Origin: a virus
Lineage: Duplodnaviria; Heunggongvirae; Uroviricota; Caudoviricetes
Strand: one strand, 5' to 3'
Length of the DNA: 10,423 nt
IMG/VR virus record: IMGVR_UViG_2534681835_000018
Part shown: positions 3,001-9,000 of the stretch, piece after piece
Layout of the letters: each line of letters opens with the position of its first letter
How positions within the stretch are numbered: the stretch's first letter is position 1
Made by a program: the position numbers

Positions 3001-6000
3001 CACCGTACACCTGATGATTTTCATCGTATACGCGCTGTATCTCTCTCTTCAGCCAGTCATCGCGCTGAGCACGGGCACTGCGTTTATCAGGATGATGTCG
3101 CTGTTGCTGACAGTGGTAATACGTTGACGGGGCAATATGCAGTTCACTGCATACCGGTCCGACCCCGTACTGCTCACGCAGCTTATCCAGCAGCGGCATT
3201 ATTTTTTCCAGAGGCGGTCGAACTCCGCCTTCGCAAAATAAGCGGAAGCCTGGCGAAGGATATCGTTACTGCGGCGCAGTTCACGATTTTCACGTTCCAG
3301 CTCTTTCAGACGCTGACGTTCAGCGCTGGTGAGCCCACCATCACCGCCCCCGGTATCCCGCTCATGCTGGCGAACCCAGACACGCAGAGTCTCCGGCGTA
3401 CAGCCAATCTTTGGGGCAATGGAACAAATTGCCGCCCACTGTGAGTCATATTCATCCTGACTTTCCAGAACCATACGAATCGCCCGCTGACGGACTTCGG
3501 GGGAAAAACGAGTATTTTTAGTCATCCTGTTTACCTCTTTCTCAGGGAGTTTAGTCTCCAGGATTTCCGGGGCGGTTCAAAAAGATGAAAAAGAAAGATC
3601 GCGATGCTGATTTGCGCTGGATTCATGGCGTTATAGTTCAGGCAGCGTGGTTTGTAAAAGCATCACTGGAGCAGAATGCACTATCGGGCAACTATCCGGT
3701 AACTCCGGATAGTTGGATAAGCTGTAGTGAGCGAATGCCGGATACCAAAACAGCCGTTCTTGTTGCCAGGGATTTTGGCAGGAAAGGTGACTGGCGAATG
3801 AAATGGGCGACTTACATCCCGGGGCATCCTGACGCTAATGATGGGTGGATAATACCTGGTGCGTCGTGGATACCATCACACTGGATGCCTCTACCAGAAC
3901 CGCCGCAGGAGGTGCGCCAATGAACTGGCCTGAAGCATTTGCAATTACAGGCGTTGCTATGGCTATCGCTTTTTTAGTATATGTTATTTGTCGGTGAGGG
4001 TAAAAACGTTCGCCGGGATTAACACCAAAGGAGGGAATATGTCGGATGATATATCACTGGCAATGGAAGGTGCGCTGGCTGTTGTTGCTGTTGTGGGCGT
4101 TTACTGCCTGGTTGTGTTTTTGATGGATCGACTAGGGAACTGAATTCATTACGATATGGGAATTCCCATATCGGGTAAAAACGGTTTGCGGTAAAGCGAG
4201 AGTTAAGTAGAATTGCTGCGGGTGCTTGAGGCTGTCTGCCTCGGGCATGCCACCGTAAGGCAGACAGAGAAAAGCCCCAGTTAACATTACGCGTCCTGCA
4301 AGACGCTTAACATTAATCTGAGGCCCAATCTATGCTTCACAAACGTAGGTTAGCCTCTTACGTGCCGAAAGGCAAGGAGAAGCAGGCTATGAAGCAGCAA
4401 AAGGCGATGTTAATCGCCCTGATCGTCATCTGTTTAACCGTCATAGTGACGGCACTGGTAACGAGGAAAGACCTCTGCGAGGTACGAGTCCGAACCGGCC
4501 AGACGGAGGTCGCTGTCTTCACAGCTTACGAACCTGAGGAGTAAGAGACCCGGCGGGGGAGAAATCCCTCGCCACCTCTGATGAATCAGGCATCCTCAAC
4601 GCACCCGCACTTAACCCGCTTCGGCGGGTTTTGTTTTTCCTGGCATTCTGGTTTACAATTCGCACGCCAGCCTGAACAACTGGCACCTGCTGCGCCAGCA
4701 GAGACAACCGATGGCGCACGATACCAAATTATACAATTCTGATGATTCTGCCGTCTTTGCCAGCAGGCGCGGACGGTGTTTTCACGCATTCAAATCTGAC
4801 TGGTACCAGCATCCCCCATGCACTGAAGAACAGGCCGAATGGCTCATTCAGTGTTACCGCAGGCGCGGATGCGAGGTTAAAAAAGCCCTTAGCCTCGACT
4901 ACCGTCACTGGATAATCTCCGTCAGGCTCCCTTACTCCGAACGGCCACCGCGTCCGTCCCGCACATTCTAGCAACGGATCTGGAGGTAATGTGCGGGTAT
5001 TACTTCGACCTGTTCTGGTACCGGAACTCGGTCTGGTTATCGTTAAGCCAGGCCGTGAATCCATGCGGGTATTTCATGGCGGCAGGGTGCTGGTGGAGTC
5101 TGAACCGAAAAGCATGCGTAATCTGCCGTCCGGGGTCGTTCCTGCCGTTCGCCAGCCGCTGGCGGAAGATAAATCATTACTGCCATTTTTCAGCAATGAG
5201 CGTGTGATTCGTGCTGCTGGTGGCGCTGGTGCACTGTCTGACTGGTTATTACGTCACGTTAAATCCTGCCAGTGGCCTCATGGTGATTATCATCACAGCG
5301 AAACTGTCATACATCGTTACGGTACCGGCGCGATGGTGTTGTGCTGGCACTGCGACAACCAGCTGCGCGACCAGACATCCGAATCACTTGAGCAACTTGC
5401 TCAACAAAACCTGTCAGCATGGATGATTGACGTCATCCGCCACGCAATGAATGGCATACAGGAACGGGAATTATCGCTGGCTGAATTATCCTGGTGGGCA
5501 GTCTGCAATCAGGTGGTGGACGCATTACCTGAGGCAGTATCGCGTCGTTCTCTGGGATTACCGGCGGAAAAAATCCGCTCCGTATACCGTGAAAGCGACA
5601 TCATACCGGGAGAACAGACCGCCACCAGCATACTGAAGCAGCGCACAAAAAATATTGCGCCACCGCCTCACACCCACCAGCAACAGAACCCACCACAGGA
5701 AAAGACGGTGGTCAGCATTGCCGTTGATCCGGAGTCTCCGGAATCCTTCATGAAACGACCTAAACGTCGCCGCTGGGTAAATGAGAAATACACACGCTGG
5801 GTAAAGACACAGCCGTGTGCGTGTTGTGGTAAGCCAGCGGACGATCCTCATCATCTGATTGGTCATGGTCAGGGTGGAATGGGAACAAAATCCCACGATA
5901 TTTTCACGCTACCGCTGTGTCGGGAGCATCACAACGAGCTTCATGCGGATCCGCTGGCGTTCGAAGAAAAGCATGGTTCCCAGGTTGATTTAATTTTTCG

Positions 6001-9000
6001 TTTTCTTGATCACGCTTTTGCAACCGGCGTGCTCGGGTAAAAGAGGTTACTGATGCGTATAGAGTTTGTTTTGCCTTACCCGCCGACGGTGAACACCTAC
6101 TGGCGACGTCGTGGCAGCACATATTTTGTATCAAAAGCCGGTGAGCGTTATCGCCGGGCTGTGGCGCTTATTGTTCGCCAGCAGCGGCTGAAATTAAGCC
6201 TGTCCGGACGGCTGGCAATAAAAATTATTGCAGAACCACCGGATAAGCGCCGCCGTGACCTGGACAACATTCTGAAAGCACCGCTGGATGCGCTGACGCA
6301 TGCGGAAGTGCTCATTGATGACGAGCAGTTTGATGAAATCAATATTGTGCGCGGTCAGCCTGTGCCAGGTGGACGGCTGGGCGTGAAGATTTACGAAATC
6401 AGAGGTGGTAACGATGGCGCGTGATATCCAGATGGTTCTTGAGCGATGGGGGGCATGGGCAGCAAATAATCATGAAGATGTAACATGGCCCTCGATAGCT
6501 GCTGGTTTTAAAGGATTAATCCCGACTAAAGTGAAATCACGTCCTCAGTGTTCTGATGATGACGCCATGATAATTTGTGGTTGTATGGCACGATTAAACA
6601 AGAATAATCAGTATTTGCACGATTTGTTGGTGGATTATTACGTAGGTGGAATGACATTTATGGCTCTTGCACGTAAGCATAGATGTTCTGATGGGCTTAT
6701 TGGTAAAAGGCTTTATAAAGCGGAAGGTATTATTGAAGGAATGCTTATGGCTCTGAATGTCCGGTTAGATATGGATATGCGGTAGGGATATATAGTGATG
6801 AGGGTTATGTTTTCTGTGTTTATAATTAACATGTTTATTTTTTGATGGTCATGTATTGTGGAAGGTAGATAAAATGTTGCCTGGTGAATTGAAAATATTG
6901 ATAATCAATCTTCATCATTAAATAAAAGGAGTGCTTATGTGGATTGTGTTAGTACTGTCACTGTCAACTCTCAGTTGGCATAAGGTAGTGGCTTTTTCAT
7001 TGTTGACGGTGTCTGTTGTCCTGGCTGTGCTTAATGATATTATTGATTGGTCGGTGTTATTTTTTGTTGCTACAATCGTTTTTTTTATTATTTTGAAGTT
7101 CAACTGGAAATATAACGCCTGGGCTAAATCTATATATGAAGTTGGCATAGTTTTATCAGCCATAGCATTATCTTTCCATCTATGGCCAGGGTTTCACAAT
7201 CCTGTAGTGCTAAATTCTGTTACTGTTGGCCCTCAAAGTACTCCCTATACAATGTATTTTAATTTTGATAAAGCGCTGGTGCCATTTTTGTTAGTCCTGT
7301 GTACATCTTCTTTGTTTAAAAAAGAAGTAAAATCAGAAGTGTCTTTGTGGAAGTGGGGGGCTCTGTCGCTCTCTGTTCCTCTTATCCTGTTTTTGGCTGT
7401 TTTTTTTGGTGGATTAAAGCCAGAGATTCATTTTCCTGAGTGGTTGCCAGAGTTTATATTGGCTAATTTGTTTTTTGTGTCTCTGGCAGAGGAATCATTA
7501 TTTAGAGGGTATATTCAATCACGGCTATCAGAAGTAACGTCTCCATTGGTTGCATTAATTGTGGCGGCTTTGTTGTTTGGTTTTTATCACTATTCAGGTG
7601 GTGCTTTACTTGTATTATTTGCCACGTTATCTGGTGTTGTGTATGGATTGTCATGGATGTGGAGTGGGCGTTTGTGGGTTGCCACCCTTTTCCATTTTGG
7701 TTTGAATCTGTGTCACTTGTTATTCTTTACCTATCCATTTTTAAAACATAATTGATTTTTTCTATGGTTTTAAATTTATAAGACTGAAAAATAGCAGGAC
7801 GTGACATTTGCATGAAAAATATGCACGGCAAAGCATTTACGTACGTAAAAAATCAGGTATGCTGTTAAGAGTGGTTATTTCGCCGCATAGCTTGACCCCG
7901 CCTCTGAGCGGGTTTTTTGTGCCCGCAAAGTAGCGCAGTGCGTTAAATGTGCTGGTAGTTATTAATACAGGTCTTTCAGCTTGCTGGCTTTTTCGGCAAG
8001 AGTTATTGGTGTGTCACGTTAACCGGAAAGGGTAAAAAGACATGCTGAAACAGCAGGATATGACAGAAACCGCCAGAGTTGTGTTTGATGAATTAAGCGT
8101 CACCGAACCGGCGACAGTCGGGGAGATTGCGCAGAATACTTACCTTTCACGCGAACGCTGCCAGTTAATACTGACCCAGCTTGTTATGGCGGGTCTGGCA
8201 GACTATCAGTGCGGTTGTTACAGACGCCTTCAGTCCTGAAGGCTTTTTTATTTGTGGTAAATGGGCGGCTGGTGGGTGTTAGCGGCACCTGTCAGTCCTT
8301 TGCTTATGTGTTGATGATAATTTACCTTTTGGGGCTATAATTGAACTAACCAATTGCTAATGAAAGTAAAATTATAATGGTTGTTGTCTGTTCAGTTATC
8401 ATGGTTTGCTCCCCAATTAATATTTTTCTTGAAAAGGATACGTTGTCACTTAAGCCCGGCTCAGTCGTTCTGGCCACCAAATGCATCAGGGCGCTTTTCC
8501 TTATGCATTATGGCAAAGTTAAAATTTTCGATATAAACCATTCCATAGTAAGTCAATATCTGGAAATTCAGCATAAGCTGACAAGAACTCATCTGACTGA
8601 CGTTCCGCTTTATCTGTCACTGGAACCCAACAACCCTGCGTTGGCTGAGGCTTTAATTACCAGCCAGAGATTTTCCGGAGATACCACGGATATGTTTCTT
8701 ATGATGGCATGCCTGTCGCTGTTTGAATCAGATGAACGGATATTATTATTTTTAAGTGGATGTTTATCCAGTATAAGTGCCAAAGTCAGGGCGATAATTC
8801 AGACAGATATATCAGCAAGCTGGACGCTTGGTGCGATTGCGTTACGCCTGCATATGAGTGAGAGTTTGTTAAAGATAAAACTGAAAAATGAAGGGCACAT
8901 GTTCAGTCGCTTGTTGCTGGAAGAGCGGATGCGTGTTGCTGTGAATATGTTATGTTCCCGGCATGGATATGGACAGGCTGTAGCAGAAAAATGCGGTTAT

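Follow-up and report, generated by a model that had tools for sequence, protein, structure and literature searches.

The open reading frame (ORF) at positions 4991-6040 of the window, by which we mean the whole 10,423-nucleotide stretch of the Caudoviricetes record IMGVR_UViG_2534681835_000018, is a prophage counterpart and close orthologue of E. coli K-12 ydfU. It lies on the + strand, with the stop codon included in the coordinates, and encodes a 349-residue protein of the DUF968 family. The C-terminal domain is, as judged from the predicted structure, a zinc-stabilised HNH (His-Me finger) nuclease-type fold, and the protein is probably a delayed-early DNA nickase or endonuclease that acts in phage replication or recombination. 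The analysis establishes to which family the protein belongs, its predicted fold, the conservation of its active-site and zinc residues, the purifying selection on the gene and its neighbourhood.

That a DUF968/YdfU-like protein is encoded at this position, as a sequence-only reading of the window had proposed, is borne out by a family match far beyond chance. Pfam DUF968 (PF06147) matches residues 160-346 over its whole profile (1-171 of 171; E=2.4e-77, 259.3 bits against a cut-off of 27.8 bits), and PHROG 96 ('HNH endonuclease') matches across the full length of the protein (E=7.7e-176). The protein aligns with K-12 YdfU without gaps over 349/349 residues at 86% identity, and for E. coli O111 strain 11128, in which the locus is identical, RefSeq names the product a 'DUF968 domain-containing protein'. 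An NCBIfam search of the protein gave no family model, and sequence searches of the PDB at E<=10 gave no match for the protein, the full-length profile or the N-domain profile. The GTG start at 4991 is supported by the N-terminus MRxLLxP, which the homologues share in the alignment, and a Shine-Dalgarno sequence, GGAGG, is read on the + strand at 4982-4986, 4 nt ahead of it. The ratio of non-synonymous to synonymous substitution rates (dN/dS) against K-12 ydfU is 0.10 overall, which places the gene under purifying selection, with values of 0.09 for the N-terminal domain, 0.29 for the linker and 0.07 for the C-terminal domain.

The identification of the gene is correct but ordinary. The YdfU-type protein is a common, conserved early phage protein, and its genes rank among the commonest prophage genes of E. 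coli. Matches to the 2.5-kb hok-ydfU-rusA-Q stretch occur in 4773/5426 complete genomes, at a median of two places in each, Shiga-toxin (Stx) phages included. The HNH fold of the family is already published and is not new here. A zinc-finger HNH motif was described in proteins then classed as DUF968 (Curtis et al. 2014, PMC4118853), the sister family DUF1364 was predicted to be a nuclease and linked to Ref and HNHc_6 (Kaur and Subramanian 2016, PMC4999995), and DUF968 was assigned, along with DUF1364 (YbcO, 3g27), to group 7 of the His-Me finger superfamily, in a study which names YdfU and gives RusA and Q as its neighbours (Jablonska et al. 2017, PMC5714182). YdfU is also named in the 'y-ome' paper on poorly characterised E. 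coli genes. Our literature search found no functional study of YdfU itself, and the earlier remark on a function not established still holds for YdfU in the searchable literature, while the homologous HNH domain of the Staphylococcus aureus phage protein phiNM1 Gp16 was characterised in 2026.

The HNH domain and its conserved residues

The Cys/His motif quoted in the sequence-only reading is present as C276-A-C-C279-GKPADDPH287H288LIGHGQGG...C310-R-E-H313-H314-N-E-L-H318, and the proposed resemblance of this C-terminal segment to HNH-type proteins is supported by structure prediction. With 41 aligned full-length homologues (25-93% identity) as input, AlphaFold (AF2) gave a model with a mean predicted local distance difference test score (pLDDT) of 86.7, which replaced a single-sequence AlphaFold model with a score of 46.2. 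Strands 285-288 and 306-309 are followed in the model by a helix at 311-319, giving the beta-beta-alpha-metal unit that characterises the His-Me finger/HNH superfamily, and the best PDB matches of the predicted fold are HNH enzymes. A globular HNH core like that of Ref is also found. The core spans residues 276-318 (5816-5944, + strand), with C276, C279, C310 and H313 as putative zinc ligands and H287/H288, D303, H314 and H318 as catalytic-type residues. A structural zinc site of the form CxxC...CxxH/C, such as the zinc-containing subgroups of this superfamily have, can be recognised from the sequence alone, and the catalytic-type histidine with which the first strand ends is accompanied by the expected Asn/Asp and by helix histidines as putative metal ligands. 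The HH...D...H...H spacing equals that of the canonical HNH site of colicin-type motifs.

Conservation of these residues was followed in the 41-sequence set and, separately, in 81 enterobacterial homologues with 46-94% identity, drawn from 80 loci of a collection with one genome per bacterial species; H287, H288, D303, C310, H314 and H318 lie outside the search patterns by which the latter set was collected. The catalytic-type residues are all retained in 81/81 of the enterobacterial proteins, and in the more divergent alignment H287 and H288 are each kept in 38/41, D303 in 41/41, and H314 and H318 each in 37/41. The putative zinc ligands C276, C279 and C310 are likewise present in 81/81 enterobacterial homologues and position 313 is H or C in 80/81, the corresponding counts in the 41-sequence set being 41, 32, 34 and 32. 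The two outcomes on which the sequence-only reading could have foundered, a structure prediction showing no nuclease-like fold and Cys/His residues not kept among homologues, thus both failed to appear, since a nuclease-like fold is predicted and the residues are conserved.

Ahead of the core lies a conserved basic lead-in at residues 246-275 (5726-5815, + strand; D246-PESPESFMKR-P257-K258-RRRW...WVKTQP), for which a DNA-binding role is putative. K258 is found in 41/41 and 81/81 homologues, and D246 and P257 in at least 90%. It is separated from the N-terminal domain by a variable Pro/Gln-rich linker at residues 223-245 (5657-5725, + strand), which is modelled at low confidence (pLDDT below 50 for residues 228-238) and corresponds largely to gaps in the homologues. 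As a separate observation on the DNA, it is the HNH-coding part of ydfU (5723-6040) that can still be matched, at 72-80% identity, in phages of Klebsiella and Salmonella and in further E. coli phages; in some phages this part is joined straight to Q, without rusA, and Stx phages with a related Q carry ninH in its place.

The N-terminal domain and variation in the family

The N-terminal family-specific domain (residues 1-222; 4991-5656, + strand) is modelled as a small beta-sheet with helices and a beta-hairpin plus helix, mostly at pLDDT 80-96, and phrog_11007, of unknown function, spans residues 2-135. The domain has no relative in Pfam and no sequence match in the PDB when its profile is used, and a search with this profile recovered YdfU-type proteins and fragments only, with no other architectures. 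A NinB/Orf-like identity, as in the Listeria and Staphylococcus 'DUF968' proteins, was considered and rejected (hhalign 0.1% against lambda NinB). In some database entries the N-terminal half is followed by a tail-fibre, tip-attachment, capsid or portal domain. Since these unrelated structural-gene domains start after abrupt breakpoints, we judge the entries to be chimeric; they are most likely assemblies of repeated prophage DNA and not real fusions.

Within this domain our analysis adds a second conserved Cys/His cluster at residues 93-123 (5267-5359, + strand), composed of C93, H101 and C118-W-H-C121-D122-N123, which is a putative second zinc site. In the 41-sequence set, C93 is kept in 40/41, position 101 is C or H in 40/41, C118 is invariant (41/41), position 121 is H or C in 41/41 and D122 is found in 38/41; the species-level homologues retain both C93 and C118 in 81/81, H101 in 80/81 and C or H at position 121 in 81/81. 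The AF2 model places these residues on a beta-hairpin (105-110 and 113-118) with a helix (119-125) after it, a topology equal to that of the HNH unit except that the conserved histidine closing the first strand is absent. When the N- and C-terminal domains were compared by hhalign the cysteines came into register, although not significantly (E 0.018, probability 2.6%), and the N-terminal cluster is possibly a degenerate copy of the HNH module that arose by ancient duplication.

The family varies mostly in its C-terminal site. PdcB of phage P1 is a full-length homologue with 26% identity. It has kept both Cys pairs as well as the N-terminal cluster, and it is encoded just before a late activator gene, lpa. 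In PdcB and its relatives, however, the C-terminal site has turned into CxxC...CxxC, and the alignment shows that H287/H288, H314 and H318 are missing. Because the catalytic HH pair and both helix histidines are gone, PdcB is probably not a canonical HNH nuclease. In a group of homologues from Vibrio phages the catalytic HH pair is kept, while C279 and C310 are gone. A BFVD search matched only small phage proteins, some 110 residues long, which are made up of a DUF968-like HNH domain and nothing else.

Gene neighbourhood, relatives and possible function

The gene is flanked as the sequence-only reading had claimed, with the hokD toxin locus (4389-4544) upstream and rusA immediately downstream. 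The latter, which encodes a Holliday-junction resolvase (6053-6424, + strand; Pfam RusA E=1.1e-15, and so annotated in RefSeq), begins 12 nt past the ydfU stop and is followed by the late-gene antiterminator gene Q (PF06530; 6405-6785, + strand; Pfam Phage_antitermQ E=4.9e-52), for which the RefSeq start is the ATG at 6414, overlapping the end of rusA. RefSeq gives the same order in E. coli O111 strain 11128, namely hokD, a hypothetical gene, DUF968, RusA and Q. A scan of viral contigs yielded close E. coli relatives only, and the neighbourhood statistics therefore refer to the 80 species-level loci from the genome scan, of which 78 could be scored downstream.

A Q-like antiterminator is encoded by the ORF directly downstream of the YdfU-type gene in 75/78 loci. 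These downstream ORFs fall into four mutually unrelated BLAST clusters: the PF06530 type with 40 members, the PF03589 type with 11, and two further clusters with 12 members each. Of the last two, one is DUF1133, Q-like according to PHROGs, and the other is taken to be of the PF06323 type because the Pfam count is also 12. RusA is directly downstream in the remaining three loci, the same arrangement as in the window, where Q then follows RusA. Directly upstream we found a Rha/ANT antirepressor in 25 loci, RusA in 20, KilA-N in 8 and a DNA methylase in about 10. The proposed conserved position next to RusA stands in part, in that RusA adjoins the YdfU-type gene in 23/80 loci and lies inside 4 kb in at least 47/80, but the constant neighbour is Q. 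Given this co-occurrence with RusA, the idea that YdfU substitutes for RusA or Rap was rejected; NinG, YbcO and NinB were found in 0/80 of the YdfU loci. Shigella phage SfIV has its YdfU-type gene immediately before Q, and in P1 pdcB lies between phd-doc-pdcA and, directly behind it, lpa (late promoter activator). Most simply, ydfU would close a syntenic delayed-early operon and its product would be made together with Q; the adjacency to Q or Lpa may be plain synteny or may reflect a functional tie to the late switch.

The setting in the window can be compared with that of K-12 YdfU itself (Qin prophage, b1560), which has the same 349-residue length, domain order and surroundings, hokD...ydfU...Q. 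The two loci differ in that Q of Qin (ydfT, PF03589 type) follows ydfU directly, whereas in the window rusA lies between them and Q is of the PF06530 type, and in that Qin has rem between hokD and ydfU where the window has an unrelated ORF (4711-4971).

The closest characterised relative found is phiNM1 Gp16, an early HNH protein that is reported to bind RecA and to act in vitro as a nickase whose cleavage RecA enhances; it is also reported to inhibit the growth of the host and to be required for phage DNA to replicate efficiently (PMC12817073). The YdfU profile aligns with Gp16 by hhalign at a probability of 94.3% (E 1.1e-7; YdfU 180-329, Gp16 72-201), and the two share the signature C-x2-C-G-K-P...H...L-C-R-E-H-H-N-E-x-H-A together with some preceding helices. 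Each is encoded by an early phage gene, and in each case rusA is found in the same replication/recombination region, but gp16 follows ssb while a YdfU-type gene precedes the late regulator. The NinB/Orf-like N-terminal domain of HNHc_6/Gp16-type nucleases is not found in YdfU, whose own N-terminal domain has no similarity to lambda NinB and carries its own Cys/His cluster. P1 Ref, a RecA-dependent HNH nuclease (PDB 3plw), has a disordered basic N-terminal arm where YdfU has a folded 220-residue domain. YbcO of prophage DLP12/82 (DUF1364, PDB 3g27) is a 96-residue HNH module alone, without an N-terminal domain, and precedes rusA, whereas YdfU usually follows it. Rap/NinG of lambda (PF05766), a branch-specific endonuclease of the nin region, is also a His-Me finger protein and is encoded at a comparable place in that region, two genes upstream of Q, but YdfU has no Pfam hit to NinG, and hhalign gave 5.6% over 18 columns, covering the CxxCG knuckle only.

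On these grounds the product of the ORF is a YdfU-type protein of a lambdoid prophage, built in two parts. The N-terminal 220 or so residues form a family-specific domain, with its own conserved and probably zinc-binding Cys/His cluster, that would supply substrate or partner recognition, and a flexible linker with a short basic segment leads to the C-terminal HNH (His-Me finger) nuclease domain. In the latter the CxxC...CxxH site would hold the fold, and H287/H288, D303, H314 and H318, to judge by their spacing, would make up a divalent-metal active site. The gene seems to be the final one of the delayed-early (nin) operon, with rusA and Q close behind it; from this position next to Q its product is expected just before the late switch, which would be while phage DNA replicates and recombines. 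The protein would then nick or cut DNA in a metal-dependent manner, with replication or recombination intermediates as the presumed target and possibly with aid from host recombination proteins such as RecA, as for phiNM1 Gp16 and P1 Ref. We infer the nuclease activity, its substrate, its timing and any link to RecA.

Several points weigh against this proposal. In the searchable literature we came upon no study that had put a YdfU-type protein to a biochemical or genetic test, and the structural evidence is prediction and not experiment. The Pfam scores are below the gathering scores both for HNHc_6 (PF16784; 22.3 against 26.6 bits, E=1.1e-4, residues 271-319 only) and for the Ref family (PF16786, RecA_dep_nuc; 13.2 against 26.9 bits, E=0.1). 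Dependence on a partner cannot be transferred from Gp16 or Ref, because the N-terminal domain differs from theirs. The toxicity of Gp16 is abolished by zinc-site mutants and not by catalytic-histidine mutants (PMC12817073). Finally, the PdcB clade retains the N-terminal cluster and CxxC...CxxC yet is without H287/H288, H314 and H318, and part of the function of the family may therefore need no catalysis.

The last of these observations is also what recommends a non-catalytic role, in which the zinc modules of YdfU would bind nucleic acid or a partner as a regulatory factor of the late-gene switch and the HNH residues would be vestigial. Such a role would suit the late-gene regulators found directly downstream in nearly all loci, in four sequence-unrelated groups, and the place of pdcB directly before lpa. 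Adjacency to Q, however, is to be expected of whichever gene comes last in a syntenic lambdoid nin region, and in P1 a C1-controlled promoter lies between pdcB and lpa. In the enterobacterial YdfU clade, to which the window gene belongs, the catalytic set is strictly kept, and the low dN/dS of the C-terminal domain likewise tells against such a role; we regard a purely regulatory protein as quite unlikely. It is tempting to speculate on a two-module zinc protein in which the N-terminal beta-beta-alpha module is degenerate and the C-terminal HNH domain active, and whose core function is N-terminal and linked to the late switch. The obligatory position before Q or Lpa would follow from that link, and the catalytically dead PdcB clade would keep the binding function alone; the protein may, for example, make a nick directed by a host factor (e.g. 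RecA) that couples the change of replication mode to late transcription. We give this idea a slender chance.

Alternatively, YdfU could be a toxic early nuclease that damages the host by nicking or condensing its chromosome, stopping its replication or attacking competing DNA, and takes no part in processing phage DNA. Expression of Gp16 alone, with which YdfU shares the HNH core, is enough to inhibit the host's growth and to condense its nucleoid (PMC12817073), and the Rho-dependent terminator upstream of ydfU in K-12 is among the strongest, of a kind which the authors consider to suppress toxic prophage genes (PMC9160355). Toxicity of YdfU is not reported in the searchable papers, though, there is no match to known defence-system models, and the neighbours are recombination and regulatory genes and not host-shutoff genes; this possibility moreover overlaps with the nickase proposal, as Gp16 does both, and we consider a function confined to host damage unlikely. 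Free-standing phage HNH genes are often homing endonucleases, and the patchy presence of ydfU, with ninH preceding related Q genes in Stx phages instead, might suggest a selfish element that maintains itself at a genomic site. The flanks vary, with four unrelated Q groups on one side and antirepressor, RusA, KilA-N or methylase on the other, so that there is no common target site; the Pfam search of the window protein revealed no DNA-binding module usual for homing enzymes, purifying selection is strong across genera, and homing is accordingly very improbable. An accessory role in packaging, aiding cos or pac cleavage beside terminase as HK97 gp74 does, is hardly credible: no adjacency to terminase or portal genes was found, since both in the window and in 78/78 loci the gene belongs to the early region and lies upstream of Q, away from the terminase genes, and HNH proteins of packaging are a third as large and of other architecture.

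If the favoured proposal of a nickase working with RusA and host recombination is true, it would bear on the replication and recombination of lambdoid and Stx prophages after induction. What is gained is a sharper experiment and not a new kind of system, with residues to mutate, partners, and Gp16 and Ref as templates. The second Cys/His module, the constant adjacency to Q and the catalytically degenerate PdcB clade are three side observations that the analysis adds.

Other features of the window

Upstream of ydfU, a hok/sok type I toxin-antitoxin locus occupies 4220-4630, with the Rfam sok match at 4220-4394 and hokD (Hok/gef) at 4389-4544. Toxin-antitoxin modules also lie upstream of homologues, relBE-hokD in Qin and phd-doc in P1. 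A strong terminator-like hairpin, AACCCGC-TTCG-GCGGGTT with a T run, is found at 4613-4630; as it lies upstream, transcription must read through it to reach ydfU. It is followed by the 86-residue ORF at 4711-4971 (+ strand), which matches phrog_1212 of unknown function and takes the slot of rem in Qin without similarity to Rem.

Farther upstream, an IS3-family insertion sequence lies at 2312-3525 on the - strand (orfA 3199-3525, orfB 2312-3199), with the ALIL frameshift pseudoknot at 3128-3244. The element appears to interrupt a + strand ORF at 1741-2505, and O111 strain 11128 has pseudogene fragments alone at this position, with no insertion sequence.

Three + strand genes between Q and the tRNA genes are probably cargo, namely a gene for a CPBP-family intramembrane protease (6931-7755), a 65-residue ORF (8042-8239) and a helix-turn-helix regulator gene (8377-9090). 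The genes at 6931-9090 gave no defence-system match, and no credible match of this kind was obtained with PADLOC. Three phage tRNA genes, detected by ARAGORN and annotated in RefSeq, lie within 9119-9635 on the + strand; the first is called Met (anticodon CAT) by ARAGORN and Ile by RefSeq, and the other two are Arg. After the tRNA genes, a full-length match to the sRNA family STnc100 (138 bits) is found at 9445-9635 on the + strand.

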